Assembly: GCA_963823335.1 (NCBI GenBank)
Contig: CAWGLD010000007.1
Coordinates: 64,001-128,000, forward strand
Reading direction: 5' to 3'
DNA: 64,000 bases
Source: an uncultured delta proteobacterium
GTDB taxonomy: Bacteria; Desulfobacterota; Desulfobacteria; Desulfobacterales; B30-G6
Positions 53,192-58,777 of this stretch are shown here, in pieces. Position numbers and translations under genes: made by a program. Positions within the stretch are counted from its first letter, which is position 1. Every line of letters starts with the position of its first letter. Under the pieces are notes generated by a model. That model was not told where the DNA came from, did not search any database, and saw only the letters and a list, made by a program, of their open reading frames with translations.

Positions 53192-54989
53192 ATGAAATAC
53201 AAGCAAGTCATCAGCGCATATATCCGCCTTTGGATGTGTGTTCCCATTGCGTTACTGATTCTGACCCCGATGATTGCCCGGGGTATGGAGTCTTTTCCCA
53301 AGCCGGGATGGCAGGATCGCCCGAATCCCATTGCCGGCAGCGATGCTGTTGTGGGAGGGGAGATCGCCATTTTCGCCGGGCAATACCCCAAAAGCCTCAA
53401 CTACTATCTCGACAACAACAGCTTTACAGTGGAAGTCTTTGGTGCCATGTTCGAGACACTGCTCTCCATGAATCCCATCACCCTTGAATACGAGCCCGGC
53501 CTGGCAGAAACATGGCGTATCTCCGATGATAAGAAAACATTCATTTTCTCGATTCACAAGAGCGCGCGCTGGAGTGACGGCCGCCCCATCACCGCCCATG
53601 ATGTCAAGTGGACCTTTGACACGATTCTGGATCCGAAAAACCTGACCGGCCCTCACAAGGTCAGTCTCGAGCGGTTTTCATCCCCCACGGTATTGGACGA
53701 GCACACCATTCGTTTCCAGGCCGAAGATGTGCACTGGATGAATCTGGGCGCCGTGGGTGGTTTTAATATCTTACCCAAACATGTGTTTGAAGGAAAAGAT
53801 TTCAACAAAATCAATTTTGAGTTCCCTGTGGTCTCCGGTCCCTATGAAATCGGTCTCATCGACGAAGGAATCTTTCTGACCCTGGAGCGCCGTGAAAACT
53901 GGTGGAACATCCATGCCCAGCGTTCACGGAACACCGCCAACTTTCAAACAATGAAATTCAGGTTTTATGCCGAGAGAGAGAATGCCTTCGAAGCCTTTAA
54001 AAAAGGACAGTTCGACCTGTTTCCCATCTACACCTCCCGGCTGTGGGTCAATGAAACCAAAGGTGAAAAATTTTCCAAAGACTGGATCGTAAAACAAAAA
54101 ATATTCAACCTGAATCCCATCGGTTTCCAGGGCTTTGCCATGAATATGCGCAAACCGCCCTTTGATGATATCCGGGTTCGAATTGCCATGGCCCATCTTC
54201 TGGACCGACCCAAGATGAACAGCACCCTCATGTACAGTCAGTATTTTCTGCATCGTTCCTACTTTGAAGATCTTTATGATAAAAACCACCCCTGCCCAAA
54301 CCGCCTGGTTGAATTTGACAAGGCCAGAGCCAGAGACCTGCTGAAACAGGCCGGCTGGGCGGTCAACCCGGCCACGGGAATTCTGGAGAAAGACAACCAG
54401 ACGTTCTCCTTTAAATTCCTGACCCGGCAAGCATCCACGGACACCTTTCTGGCCATCTATGCCGAAGATTTAAAAGACGTGGGCATCGAGTTGATCATCG
54501 ACAGGAAGGACTGGGCTGCCTGGGCCAAAGACATGGATGAGTTCAACTATGAAATGACGTGGGCCGCCTGGGGATCAGGGGTCTTCAAGAACCCGGAAAG
54601 CATGTGGTCCTCCAAAGAAGCCGAGAGAAAAAGCGGCAACAACATCACGGGATTCAAAAACACTGACCGTGGACACCCTCATTGAAAAGCAGAAAAGCAT
54701 TTTCGATGTTCAGGAGCGCAACGCCATTTACAGGGAAATAGACCGGATGATCTACGATGCGCACCCCTATGTACTGTTGTGGAATATCAACTATACGCGG
54801 CTCCTGTACTGGAATAAATTCGGTACACCCCAAACGGTTCTCTCCAAATACGGTGATGAAACCAGCGCGTACTGGTATTGGTGGATCGACAAGGATTCGG
54901 AGGCGGATCTGACCGATGCCATGCGCCAGGGATTGTCCCTGCCCCCCAAAGAACCCAACATTTTTTTTGATGAGATGTTTTCAGAATGA
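53192..54989 (+). pseudogene. YejA/OppA-type ABC substrate-binding protein, frameshifted near 54660-54668
   Basis: Frame 1 ends ...ITGFKNTD and the homologous sequence continues in the +1 frame as VDTLIEKQK...LLYWNKFG; pseudogene or sequence error. Confidence 0.75.
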
Positions 54990-55111
54990 CAGTATTCTCG
55001 TATCACAGGTTTGGGAGACTGTCGAAAAAGTCCAAAAACAGTGGTTTAAGTAGTTTAATATTAAAATTTAAAATAGACGGGTTTCATGTGGATTTTAGTG
55101 CTTATCCGTAT

Positions 55112-55330
55112 TTACGGATAATTTTTCGAGTCTGAATCTCCAACGACAGATGTCTGATCTTCAACCCAGCGGATATCGCCCGTTTTTGTTAAAAAGCGAT
55201 ACTCCTGTGTGTATTCTTCAACATCCTCGAGATGTTTCTGCAAAGATTCTACTTCTGTGGATCGAATCCTCAGTGACTGCAACTCTTTTATAAGTTCTCT
55301 TTTTGATTTCTGCAGATCTGCTTTTATCAT
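55112..55330 (-). pseudogene. PAS/PAC sensor-protein remnant
   Basis: KSKRELIKEL coiled N-terminus joined directly to the PAC motif EYRFLTKTGDIRWVEDQ, then a stop. Confidence 0.55.
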
Positions 55331-55420
55331 AGATCTCCTCCGAATCTAACATGACGTCCTATTTTGATTATACGCTTTCTCAAAAAAATTTGGCCCAATT
55401 TCTGTGTTGGCCCCTTGCTT

Positions 55421-55474
55421 CAACTACATATTGTATTTTTATTTCTTGACATACAACATATAGTATACTATGAT
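55421..55474 (+). promoter_or_regulatory. Sigma70 promoter with tandem NrdR-box-like operators
   Basis: TTGACA (55446-55451), 17 bp spacer, TATGAT (55469-55474); CAACTACATATTGTAT (55421) and ATACAACATATAGTAT (55451) match acaCwAtATaTwGtg. Confidence 0.65.
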
Positions 55475-55557
55475 ACGAAAAAATATTTTAAATATTCAGC
55501 AAGCCTACCTCTGAACCGTGACAATATCATGATTATAGAGGTTCTAAAATATTATTT

Positions 55558-55600
55558 GAAACCTCCCAAAGAGATTCCTGGTCTCTCAAGAGGTTTTTTT
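55558..55600 (+). terminator. Intrinsic terminator-like hairpin in the parA leader
   Basis: AAACCTC..AGAGA-loop-TCTCT..GAGGTTT followed by a T-run. Confidence 0.55.
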
Positions 55601-55834
55601 ATTCTGGTATATTGAAGAACCTCATAGCAAGCAACGAGAAATGTTCTGCCGTGCGCATTGCTTCCCAGCGACACTAAGGAATTCTGTCAGATTTTGATTC
55701 GTTGGCTAACCTCGCGACATGTGAAGCACTGCCACAGGCAGAACCCACGGGGAATACGCTCGCTGTTGCGGTTCAAGTTTGAACCATTTTTTTTCCGATT
55801 TTTCAAATCAAACAAAGTAGGAGGATTGGAGAAA

Positions 55835-56911
55835 ATGAGAACAATTTCGATTGCCAATCAAAAAGGTGGCTGTGGTAAGACGACCACCGCAATCAATCTA
55901 TCCGCCTGTCTTGCCCATAGGGGTAAAAGAGTACTTCTAATCGATATGGATCCTCAAGGTCACGTTGCGTTGGGGTTGAATATTGACAGCAACGATAAAG
56001 AGAATACAGTCTTTAGTGTCCTGGAGCCTTCCAACGGCAGCCGACTGTCGCTTGCCGATATTTCCGAAAACGTTGCAGAAAACTTCGATGCCGTGCCCGC
56101 AGATATTTCACTCAGCACCCTGGATCAGCACCTTTCAATGGTTGAGGGCAGAGAGACCCGCTTGAAACACGCAGTCAGCCGGCTTTATTCATTGTATGAC
56201 ATCATTATCATAGATTGCCCGCCGAGTCTTGGATTACTGACATTCAACGCCCTTATTGCCTCATCAGAAGTGATCGTGCCCATAGAGATGAGCTTGTTTT
56301 CTTTGCACGGGATCGGCAGACTCATGGAAATCATAGCGTCCATCAAGAAGAAAACCGGCCATGAAATCCATACAAGAGTTTTTGGAACAATGGTTGATAA
56401 GCGCACAAGAATCGCGAGGGAAGTGCTGGAAAATATTAGAAACCATTTTGGTGACACCATGTTTGAAGCGGTCATTCGTTCCAATGTCACCTTGAAGGAG
56501 GCCGCCGGGTTTGGGAAATCGATAATAGATTACTCAAAAAAGGCGAGCGGGTTCAAAGATTATATGATGCTTGCCGACGAAGTTCTTTTAGAGAAAGGAA
56601 CGGAGCATAGTCTGAACGTCGAGGATGACGAATCAATGTTCTTGGAATCGAATCTGGAAAAGCGCTTTTCCTATTATGGACCTGAAGCAAACTCCGTAAA
56701 GATCGGAGGAAGTTTTAACAATTGGAACCCATCCGATGAGTTTCGTATGGAACGTGATGAATATGGCACATGGACAAAGAAGATCTCTCTCAGACCGGGC
56801 ACCTATCAATACAGATTTATTGTCGATGGTGAATGGGTCGAAGATCACAATAATTCGAATTATATACATAATGCCTATGGTGGCCACAATTCGGTTTTGG
56901 AAATTCGGTAA
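55835..56911 (+). CDS. ParA/Soj family ATPase fused to a C-terminal CBM48/AMPK-beta-type glycogen-binding domain
   Basis: NQKGGCGKTT, DMDPQG and DCPPSLG motifs; C-terminus EANSVKIGGSFNNW...W...PGTYQYRFIVDGEW..D..N...N.YGGHNS; AGGAGG upstream. Confidence 0.88.
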   Translation: MRTISIANQKGGCGKTTTAINLSACLAHRGKRVLLIDMDPQGHVALGLNIDSNDKENTVFSVLEPSNGSRLSLADISENVAENFDAVPADISLSTLDQHLSMVEGRETRLKHAVSRLYSLYDIIIIDCPPSLGLLTFNALIASSEVIVPIEMSLFSLHGIGRLMEIIASIKKKTGHEIHTRVFGTMVDKRTRIAREVLENIRNHFGDTMFEAVIRSNVTLKEAAGFGKSIIDYSKKASGFKDYMMLADEVLLEKGTEHSLNVEDDESMFLESNLEKRFSYYGPEANSVKIGGSFNNWNPSDEFRMERDEYGTWTKKISLRPGTYQYRFIVDGEWVEDHNNSNYIHNAYGGHNSVLEIR

Positions 56912-56924
56912 AAGGACATCCTAA

Positions 56925-57473
56925 ATGGAAAAAAAGAGTCTTGGCAGGGGTCTTGAGGACATTGCGGATATTTTTATATCACAGAACAAGCAAAATATTC
57001 CTACGGCTGATTCAACATCGGAAAACATGAGAAAGGTGGTCAATGAATCCTCTCCCGGACATTCTTTTGCAGCGTCGGAGGAAAGCGTGTCTTTTTCTGA
57101 AGACGATATTATAACGGTAATAAATGAAAGACTCAGGGTGAATAGGAATTGCCTCAACACCGAGCGGCCTTTGGAACATGATCGCTCAGAAAAGGATGAT
57201 AAGCTCCGGACCAGGAATATGGAAAAAACCCCGTCAGATGACCCGGACGTCTGTGAAGTCACGGAACATGTTACCAGCAAAAAGAAAATGGGTTACGTAA
57301 ATACCCCCGATGTTCAAAAAAACATCGTAAAATCGCTTTTCCAGCATCTTCGTCGGAACTACAACATAAAGAATATTGAGTTGGTAAAAGAGAACGAGGT
57401 GTCCCGTCCAGGAATGAAAATTACAATTGAAAAGAATATTTTGATTTATGTCAAGGAGCAAGAAAACCATTAA
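56925..57473 (+). CDS. Hypothetical protein with ParB-like N-terminal motif
   Basis: MEKKSLGRGLEDI N-terminus; AAGGA RBS; 13 bp downstream of the ParA fusion. Confidence 0.7.
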   Translation: MEKKSLGRGLEDIADIFISQNKQNIPTADSTSENMRKVVNESSPGHSFAASEESVSFSEDDIITVINERLRVNRNCLNTERPLEHDRSEKDDKLRTRNMEKTPSDDPDVCEVTEHVTSKKKMGYVNTPDVQKNIVKSLFQHLRRNYNIKNIELVKENEVSRPGMKITIEKNILIYVKEQENH

Positions 57474-57480
57474 TTAATTT

Positions 57481-57797
57481 GGATCATCTCCCAAAGAGTT
57501 GATCCAAATTAAGGATTCAAGGATTCCAGGGGTCCAGGGTTCGAGTGAGATGAAGTAAGGCATCAGATAAATGCTTAAGCATTATAAAGAGTTAAAAGTT
57601 GTGAATTGGAAACGCAGCCTATGATATCCGGTGATTTGGATTATATGAAAAAGGAAAAGCTTCAGGAATTAAGAGATGAGATTGGGGATGTAAAGAGAAT
57701 GCTAAAAGCGATGATCAAATCCCTGGAAAACAAACACTTGAATCCTTGAATCCTGGACTCCTTGAACCCTTTCTCCCAACTTATTGGGAGAAGATCC
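57481..57797 (+). mobile_element. Small inverted-repeat element carrying a deleted four-helix-bundle pseudogene (57571-57749)
   Basis: Outer IRs GGATCATCTCCCAAAGAGTTG / CAACTTATTGGGAGAAGATCC; inner inverted octamer arrays; MLKHYKELKV + CELETQ...VKRMLKAMIKSLENKHLNP*. Confidence 0.7.
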
Positions 57798-57805
57798 ATT
57801 ATATT

Positions 57806-58777
57806 TCAGGTGAAGAGGTGACAACTCACGCTATGACCTGCCTTGTCCGTTTCTCTTGGGGCCTCTTTGCGGCAGACCTCCATAACGTCCGGGCATCGGG
57901 GATGGAAGCAGCACCCTTCCAGGGGGACGGATAGAGAGGGGGGGCCCTCCTCAATCGATGGCCATTGCGCCCTGTGTGATCCCGGACGCGGGACGGCTGA
58001 TATGAGCGCTTTTGTGTAGGGGTGCCTGGGGTGAAAAACGATGTCACCTGTCTTTCCAAACTCTACAATTCGTCCCAGATACATCACCGCAATCCGGTTG
58101 GAGATGTGACTGACAACACTCACATCGTGCGAGATAAACAGATAGGACAGGTGGTACTTCTCCCGGAGATCCAGAAGCAGATTGATAATCTGGGCCTGTA
58201 TGGACACATCCAGGGCACTGACCGGCTCATCGCAGACAATAAAATCAGGCTTCAGCGATATGGCCCGGGCGATGTTGATGCGCTGGCGCTGACCGCCCGA
58301 GAATTCATGGGGGTAGCGGTATAATGCATCGGCATCCAGACCCACATCTTTCAGGATGCCCCTGGCCGCTTCCTCACGGTCGCCACGGATCAATTTAAAT
58401 TCGGATATCCCTTCCGTAATGATGTCCAGAACATTCATGCGCGGGTTCAGGGACGACAGCGGGTCCTGAAAAATGATCTGAATTTTGCGCCGCAAGGCTC
58501 GCAGTTCTTTGCGGGACAGACCGGCCAGATCCCTGCCCTGGAACTTTATATGACCCGCATGAATCTTTTCCAGCCCCACCAGGGTCCTGCCGAGAGTCGT
58601 CTTGCCGCAGCCGGATTCCCCCACCAGACCGATGGTTTCCCCTTTCTGCAGCACAAAGGAGATACCGTCCACCGCCCGGACATGACCGATGGTCCGGGAC
58701 AGAATGCCCCTGCGAACAGGAAACCAGGTCTTGAGGCGGTCTACTTCAATCAGCGGGTAATGGTTTATTGAGTTCAT
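57806..58777 (-). CDS. Oligopeptide ABC transporter ATP-binding protein (OppF-like)
   Basis: [16 protein letters not shown] and DEPVSALD motifs. Confidence 0.93.

Follow-up and report, generated by a model that had tools for sequence, protein, structure and literature searches.

A ParA-type ATPase fused to a glucan-binding module, with an LGRGL partner: a candidate glycogen-linked ATP switch in Desulfobacterales

ParA/MinD ATPases are known to act on DNA, carboxysomes, chemoreceptor arrays, flagella and the divisome. We analyzed a 64,000-nucleotide stretch of the genome of an uncultured delta proteobacterium of the order Desulfobacterales (assembly GCA_963823335.1, contig CAWGLD010000007.1, positions 64,001 to 128,000; hereafter, the window), which encodes a ParA/Soj-type ATPase fused to a C-terminal carbohydrate-binding module (CBM) of the CBM48 type, followed by a small partner protein that opens with a ParB-like LGRGL peptide. 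Positions without a contig or locus prefix are those of the window. A previous annotation made from the letters and their open reading frames (ORFs), here called the sequence-only reading, had proposed that this gene pair positions or segregates granules of glycogen or alpha-glucan, or else connects partitioning with carbon storage.

In ParABS systems, as at this locus, a deviant Walker A ATPase is accompanied by a partner with a lysine-rich start containing LG(R/K)GL, as is also seen in the ParB encoded by the same genome. However, the partner in the window has neither a ParB_N/CTPase domain nor a helix-turn-helix (HTH), no parS was identified, and the ATPase carries a glucan-binding domain. 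To our knowledge, no ParA of a ParABS system carries such a domain. McdA-McdB and other orphan ParA-adaptor pairs resemble the locus in that an orphan ParA lies beside a small, partly disordered, lineage-specific adaptor; the McdB adaptor has an N-terminal activating segment and the cargo is not DNA, as would also be the case here. There, however, the adaptor is what attaches to the cargo while ParA attaches to the nucleoid, whereas here the putative cargo module lies on the ATPase, and the likeness to McdA is weak (E 6e-14, over the first 173 residues of the fusion only; structures 6non and 6noo).

The glucan-binding module belongs to the same CBM48 subfamily as that of the AMPK beta subunit and has the same binding residues. 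In the accounts of AMPK beta and plant PTST drawn on here, a non-catalytic CBM48 likewise directs a regulatory protein to particles of glucan (glycogen or starch), but these proteins are eukaryotic, have a kinase or coiled-coil partner, and contain no ATPase switch. The combination of ParA with AMPK1_CBM is already in print: section 29 of a preprint by Li, Burroughs and Aravind (bioRxiv 10.64898/2026.10.19.760177, 22 Oct 2026) describes a 'ParA-CBM system', for which its passages on the system predict a role in immunity, argued from rapid divergence of the CBM. The claim of the sequence-only reading that no system of this architecture had been described is thus outdated. The published system shares with ours the C-terminal position of AMPK1_CBM on ParA and the sporadic distribution across phyla, and its described variants, with either an upstream membrane CBM protein or an inactive ParA and an inactive restriction-endonuclease-like protein, match our loci from Omnitrophota and three others (L102, L104 and L105), respectively. 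In contrast, the LGRGL partner of the window is not among the variants named in those passages, and our analysis did not reproduce the CBM's rapid divergence. Our literature search turned up no published account of a system for placing or partitioning glycogen in bacteria, and no glycogen-positioning ParA.

The fusion protein of 358 residues, which starts with MRTISIANQKGGCGKTT, is encoded at 55835-56911 (+) by a reading frame that is open without an internal stop. Its N-terminal part matched the Pfam families AAA_31 (residues 1-178; 186.1 bits, cut-off 27) and CbiA (76.3 bits, cut-off 25.4), while its score of 117.2 bits against the NCBIfam equivalog ParA_partition did not reach the cut-off of 180. 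The deviant Walker A motif KGGCGKTT occupies residues 10-17, and K10 and K15 of this motif, D37 and D39 of the Walker A' DxD and D127 of Walker B were kept in 30/30 fusions from several phyla. The solved proteins nearest to residues 2-251 were ParA 8ray (E 8.6e-49), Thermus Soj (1wcv/2bek) and Helicobacter pylori Soj (6iub). On this sequence evidence the fusion belongs to the Soj-like branch of the ParA/MinD ATPases, with an intact, active-looking ATPase core. A canonical Soj-ParB pair is encoded elsewhere in the source genome (C1:1316586-1318312), so the pair in the window is an extra, orphan system; the genome also encodes further proteins with deviant Walker A motifs and three further small AMPK1_CBM-like ORFs.

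The C-terminus of the fusion matched Pfam AMPK1_CBM (residues 284-358; 53.7 bits, cut-off 26.8) and CBM_48 (residues 277-342; 32.3 bits, cut-off 22.4), and aligned to the CBM structures of AMPK beta1 and beta2 (1z0n, 4y0g) and to the CBM of a GH13 pullulanase. W297, R327 and W334 aligned with the W of FNNW, the K of YKF and the W of GQW in AMPK beta1 1z0n, which are W100, K126 and W133 by the numbering of that construct. In the results of PMC6274970 considered here, mutation of these three AMPK beta1 residues abolished or weakened glycogen binding and removed the inhibition of AMPK by glycogen. Among 30 fusions from all lineages found, the corresponding positions were kept in 30/30 (W297), 27/30 (K/R327) and 29/30 (W334) proteins, with position 327 being R in the window protein and K in many relatives. 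Across phyla, the 435 pairs of these 30 fusions had a mean identity of 41% in the CBM and of 46% in the ParA domain. The kept residues and the comparable identities look like the signature of one stable ligand, and we infer that the CBM binds glycogen or a related alpha-glucan. Profiles, structural alignment and binding residues thus agreed on the CBM48/AMPK-beta assignment made by the sequence-only reading, in which the complete ParA/Soj ATPase had likewise been recognized correctly. Furthermore, PF16561 was present in 120/120 fusion relatives among the matches listed (58-99% identity, 354-389 residues), which, if given a name at all, were called 'AAA family ATPase' or 'chromosome partitioning protein', and which came mostly from Desulfobacterales; the fusion is therefore more than a chance event.

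The partner is encoded at 56925-57473 (+), 13 bases after the fusion stop at 56911, as an ORF of 182 residues whose N-terminus, MEKKSLGRGLEDIADIFIS, opens with MEKKSLGRGL; spacing and length were exactly as had been noted from the sequence. Beyond this peptide it is unlike ParB, as had also been claimed: neither Pfam nor NCBIfam gave a match better than E 0.037, without a ParB_N (CTPase) domain or HTH, and no PADLOC family was assigned. A word search retrieved 67 relatives and a profile search 91 representative clusters, all of 45-215 residues except for a weak match (E 8.3e-4) to part of an 801-residue protein. Family alignments gave the near-invariant N-terminal consensus M-E-K-K-x-L-G-R-G-L-E/D-x-I-S/A-x-I-F-L/I-S. 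The likeness to the ParB peptide is directly visible when the basic LG(R/K)GL segment of the partner, MEKKSLGRGLEDI, is set beside that of the ParB of the same genome, ...KKLALGKGLGALI (in a longer stretch, ...KKRKKLALGKGLGALI). In ParB/Spo0J, the N-terminal peptide stimulates ParA.

AlphaFold2, run with a 67-row alignment, modelled residues 11-21 of the partner as a short helix with low confidence, and a C-terminal domain of ~70 residues with high scores (predicted local distance difference test, pLDDT, 89-97 over about 111-178), in which one helix packs on a long beta-hairpin. No convincing match to this predicted fold was obtained (best Foldseek E against the Protein Data Bank 0.54; best Z 2.8 in the exhaustive structural alignment by VIA-align), and such poor scores are no proof of a new fold; the ESM Atlas yielded no usable match for the partner. 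The middle of the partner is long and variable in the clade of the window, and deleted in forms of 115-125 residues, whereas forms of 177-193 residues have a Cys-x2-Cys ... Cys ... Cys module in its place. The first 22 codons (56925-56990) had a synonymous divergence (dS) of 0.19, compared with 0.56-0.70 elsewhere in both genes, which hints at an RNA constraint such as translational coupling or structure.

We compared the occurrence of both genes in 41 related genomes and found them present and adjacent in the same eight, namely the genome of the window and 7/9 congeners. Neither gene was found in the other 33, which comprised two congeners, five genomes of two other genera of the same family and representatives of 26 other families of the order. 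In metagenomes, a scan based on an alignment of the CBM alone, which covered the closer sequences because the cross-phylum CBM alignment was too diverse as a seed, kept 80 loci: 50 complete ParA-CBM fusions, 13 cut at the 5' end, and 17 other CBM proteins. An ORF of the LG[RK]G type lay downstream in 55/63 fusion or 5'-cut loci, while four had no downstream ORF and four a different one. Both surveys thus confirmed that the gene pair is conserved, which had been suggested as a check of the sequence-only reading. The ratio of nonsynonymous to synonymous substitution rates (dN/dS) among the eight orthologues within the genus was 0.13 for ParA, 0.20 for the CBM, 0.17 for the partner peptide and 0.22 for the C-terminal domain of the partner, compared with 0.33 for the linker of the fusion and 0.55 for the middle of the partner. 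These four parts are therefore under purifying selection, and the CBM, given its ratio beside that of ParA, is not fast-evolving. Contigs from four metatranscriptome libraries aligned to both genes with 0-7 differences per 150-280 nucleotides, which is compatible with expression of both genes and is no proof of transcription; conversely, stretches bare of such contigs carry no meaning.

Outside the genus, a sample of 300 other genomes, spread evenly over the phylum, held full-length fusions with 38-45% identity in at least 13. A first scan of contigs used P-loop-derived patterns, and its kept loci were mostly ordinary ParA genes; fusions, at 14/80 kept loci, were from contigs labelled Phycisphaerae, Sedimentisphaerales, Omnitrophota, Vicinamibacterales, Margulisiibacteriota and a Thiogranum. 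Across these lineages the fusion was constant, whereas the neighbouring partner varied. The small partner of the 182-residue type was found in the clade of the window and in relatives with ~60% identity. At L102, L104, L105 and also L016, a partner of 277-298 residues combined the same N-terminal peptide with a degenerate ParA-like body and was followed by a nuclease-like protein of ~190 residues, and at L004 a partner of 248 residues carried the peptide on a nuclease-like body. Partners of 470-575 residues with a related ...IAHLFLS N-terminus were seen in Phycisphaerae. In Omnitrophota, a single-pass membrane protein was encoded upstream, and its cytoplasmic N-terminus (...DHLAKVYLGK) resembled the helical half of the peptide.

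A sister clade of ParA, with ~50% identity in the ATPase, has an acidic tail in place of the CBM. One of its members (L113:3148-4756; G034) is paired with a partner-family protein carrying the Cys-x2-Cys module, so the pairing of ParA and partner is not confined to the CBM fusion; genes for a 441-residue P-loop protein and a 194-residue protein lie downstream of this pair. A third conserved gene, encoding 226-245 residues without a Pfam family, lies directly 3' of the partner on the same strand at L131:3455-4138 and 11 other metagenome loci of the ~60% clade, and tblastn found no relative of it in the genome of the window. A MerR-family gene lies directly upstream of ParA-CBM at L101:5182-5658, L107:5189-5665 and L016:5146-5598 (assigned by Pfam for L101 and L016, and by sequence likeness only for L107), and its product may be the regulator of the module in these lineages.

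We propose that the ParA-type ATP switch sits on glycogen, or another alpha-glucan, through the CBM48 of each subunit and is reset by the partner peptide, so as to tether, spread or partition glycogen particles; we assign this reading a rough probability of 0.45. Because each subunit has one C-terminal CBM48, the ATP-bound dimer would offer two glucan-binding modules and could bind glycogen particles multivalently. By analogy with ParB/Spo0J and McdB, the LGRGL peptide and the short helix of the partner most likely stimulate ATP hydrolysis, and would thereby release or reset the ATPase. The C-terminal domain of the partner would serve as a second anchor, through self-association, DNA, or another glycogen-associated component. 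The most likely cellular outcome would be that glycogen particles are tethered, spread or partitioned. Of the glycogen module suggested by the sequence-only reading, what has gained support is the conserved orphan pair, the kept CBM residues and the adjacency to alpha-glucan genes; the statement about novelty is the part that fell.

The source genome encodes an alpha-glucan phosphorylase, a glycogen synthase and a branching enzyme in one cluster (C3:54549-61111), so it can make glycogen. To examine the genes next to the fusion in other genomes, two Pfam scans were performed: the first covered 85 of the 120 listed ORFs at 17 loci, after removal of partners scanned before, of the nine ORFs that L015 contributes as a near-copy of L010, and of some ORFs that were short or overlapped others, and the second covered 122 of 128 ORFs at 28 metagenome loci with duplicates dropped. 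GH57 genes were located upstream of the fusion at L008 and L013; a gene for a 1236-residue glycogen-synthase/phosphorylase fusion lay directly upstream on the same strand at L104; GlgB adjoined the fusion at L106; and a starch-synthase-domain gene was located 39 bases 3' of the partner at L128, with relatives at L122 and L126 detected by tblastn. At L002, a phosphoglucomutase gene beside the fusion provides a weak link to glycogen, and it was omitted from the following test because the family includes the housekeeping GlmM. A tblastn comparison with seven enzyme queries, four of them taken from the fusion loci themselves, found an alpha-glucan enzyme gene at 7/76 fusion loci (612 kb) and at 0/66 ordinary ParA/Soj loci (715 kb), the seven matches not being independent, since L008/L013 and L122/L126/L128 are close kin, which leaves about four lineages. 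These results indicate that alpha-glucan enzyme genes recur beside the fusion in several lineages.

Several observations weigh against a glycogen-handling machine, among them the kinship of these context matches and the origin of the queries. In the window, no glycogen gene lies beside the module, which is flanked by peptide-type ABC transporter genes, and the glg cluster is on another contig. Bacterial glycogen mostly takes the form of small dispersed particles, for which active partition may be unnecessary. The module occurred in only one of 29 sampled genera, with 2/9 congeners of that genus lacking it, and, given how much the bodies of the partners vary from lineage to lineage, a single cargo shared by all may not exist. 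The nucleoid is a further concern. We take R189 and R218 of B. subtilis Soj to be the arginines needed for DNA binding; at the positions aligned with the NVR and SRG arginines of Bacillaceae Soj, the fusion family has T/K and S/N/K/R/P/T, respectively, and one ordinary Soj in the alignment lacks the arginines as well. Judged from this alignment, a nucleoid-based ratchet is not assured, and the nucleoid may not be the matrix. For this reason an inverted geometry is conceivable, in which the ATPase would ride on the cargo, or glycogen rather than the nucleoid would be the binding matrix. The second anchor would then vary by lineage while carrying a common N-terminal peptide: a small oligomerizing or DNA-binding domain here, a membrane protein in Omnitrophota, and a dead ParA with a dead nuclease in other lineages. 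This fuller version, a dedicated ParA-type machine for glycogen particles, is put forward tentatively, and we regard it as somewhat doubtful.

The poor conservation at these positions would also suit a protein that moves nothing. The fusion might be a glycogen-linked regulator or scaffold, whose CBM places an ATP-dependent switch on glycogen, as the AMPK beta subunit does with a kinase, to recruit or control enzymes or to report on the store. This reading shares its domain and residue evidence with the positioning of particles, the alpha-glucan neighbours (GH57, GlgB, the synthase/phosphorylase and the starch-synthase-domain gene) are enzymes, and AMPK, as treated in the parts of PMC6274970 and PMC2642990 used here, provides a precedent for CBM48 as a glycogen sensor. 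However, the ATPase is nearest to partition ParA/Soj and the partner peptide is of the ParB type typical of positioning systems; moreover, no enzyme is fused or constantly linked to the module, and the pair in the window has no enzyme neighbour. We consider a purely regulatory role rather unlikely, though it is the strongest of the alternatives.

The genomic setting of the module also weighs against the proposed handling of glycogen particles. Likeness to the congeners is limited to 55421-55615 (promoter and leader) and 55783-57472, with 75-85% identity (82-85% for two of the three), the flanking genes differ between congeners, and GC content is 0.44 over 54-58 kb compared with 0.50-0.52 on either side. 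Judged by its non-syntenic flanks and low GC content, the module is accessory and has relocated, which would suit a conflict system or any function that the cell can dispense with. On the upstream side, the gene for a peptide-type ABC substrate-binding protein appears to be split into overlapping ORFs at 53192-54685 (497 residues) and 54669-54989 (106 residues), possibly through a frameshift or a sequencing error.

A specialist preprint (10.64898/2026.10.19.760177), in its section on the family, reads it as an immune sensor: the CBM would sense a carbohydrate that infection produces or depletes and trigger ParA multimerization that blocks the invader. The sporadic occurrence across phyla and the patchy, non-syntenic, lower-GC occurrence within the genus agree with this, as do the lineages with degenerate ParA-like and nuclease-like partners or with a membrane partner, which the preprint describes, and the CBM-less sister ParA of L113 beside a P-loop protein pair. 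However, the ground given in those passages, rapid CBM divergence, was absent in the sets that we tested (dN/dS 0.20; 41% versus 46% identity), and the AMPK-type glycogen-binding residues are kept. No effector is present at the locus, and neither protein matched a PADLOC model beyond the P-loop. Among 207 neighbour proteins at 45 loci, mobile-element or possible conflict domains were few: one each of DUF4411 (L003), a resolvase (L005), Bro-N (L008) and an M78 peptidase (L123), together with secondary GT4-conflict matches on two glycosyltransferases. In addition, the locus of the ~60%-identity clade is situated between ClpB and the ATP synthase operon, among housekeeping genes. An immune function for the pair in the window thus appears improbable to us.

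Relocation between species would also be expected of ordinary DNA partition, in which the module would serve a mobile element or secondary replicon, the partner would bind a centromere as in the type Ib ParF/ParG systems, and the CBM would be an accessory. The layout of the partner, with a flexible N-terminal activating peptide and a small C-terminal domain, is that of a small centromere-binding protein, and short repeats flank the -35 box. However, no replication, conjugation or integrase genes were found beside the module in the window or in three congeners, and the window is part of a large chromosomal contig (C7:64001-128000). The partner domain matched no DNA-binding family or fold, and the constraint on the CBM equals that on the ATPase. 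We consider this explanation very unlikely.

The features of the locus are listed in Table 1. A ribosome-binding region upstream of the fusion was conserved in 8/8 congeneric loci. The leader at 55446-55604 could be an attenuator, a riboswitch-like leader or a small RNA, with the hairpin at 55558-55604 as a candidate attenuator or small-RNA 3' end. Attenuation is possible, since pairing could occur between the first hairpin, through its 3' arm, and the 5' arm of the terminator-like hairpin. Compensatory changes were seen in 1/26 pairs of the leader hairpins, such covariation being scarce because the sequences barely vary, and Rfam gave no match in 54900-58000. The first hairpin is unique in the genome (one match at up to 6 mismatches). 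A leader peptide was considered and rejected, as indels break the frame between species. The insertion that follows in the leader looks like a small repeated element; 55611-55720 matches elsewhere in the congener L116, and the summed depth at 55705-55785 was very high in two metatranscriptome runs. Between the partner gene and an ABC-transporter ATPase gene, a short ORF is bordered by tandem 8-nucleotide repeats, with AAGGATTC twice at 57511-57526 and, in the opposite sense, CTTGAATC-like units three times at 57737-57768. High depth in contigs of RNA libraries at 57487-57567 suggests a repeat common to other organisms.

Table 1. Coordinates of features at the ParA-CBM locus in the window
Feature	Position	Strand	Remarks
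Sigma-70-type promoter-like site (TTGACA, 17 nucleotides, TATGAT)	55446..55474	+	11/12 consensus positions; -35 box and flanks kept in 8/8 species of the genus
Leader hairpin with ACCTCT ... AGAGGT stem and near-invariant 24-nucleotide loop	55507..55543	+	8/8 orthologous loci
Terminator-like hairpin and T-run (TTTTTTT)	55558..55604	+	Stem kept in 8/8; one pair changed on both sides
Leader insertion of 167 bp, this genome only, partly repeated element	55616..55782	+	Orthologous loci far shorter here (12 bp in L115)
ParA/Soj-type ATPase domain, residues 1-255	55835..56599	+	AAA_31, CbiA; dN/dS 0.13
Variable linker, residues 256-275	56600..56659	+	Mean identity in genus 48%, dN/dS 0.33; poorly conserved columns
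AMPK-beta-type CBM48, putative glucan-binding domain, residues 276-358, and stop codon	56660..56911	+	AMPK1_CBM, CBM_48; dN/dS 0.20
Partner N-terminal ParB-like peptide, residues 1-22, MEKKSLGRGLEDIADIFISQNK	56925..56990	+	Most conserved part of family; 92% identity in genus
Partner middle, residues 23-108, fast-evolving, probably disordered	56991..57248	+	50% identity, dN/dS 0.55; pLDDT 42-58
Partner C-terminal domain, residues 109-182, and stop codon	57249..57473	+	Predicted helix and long beta-hairpin; dN/dS 0.22
Inverted repeat, 17-nucleotide arms 57474-57490 / 57496-57512, 94% complementary	57474..57512	+	Just 3' of partner stop; possible transcript end

With a cargo-binding module built into the ATPase itself, the proposed link between ParA and glycogen is an unusually direct and testable hypothesis. 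The function of this pair would settle the disagreement with the immune-sensor reading of the family in the cited section of the preprint. If the proposal is true, glycogen particles would be a new class of cargo for ParA-type machines.

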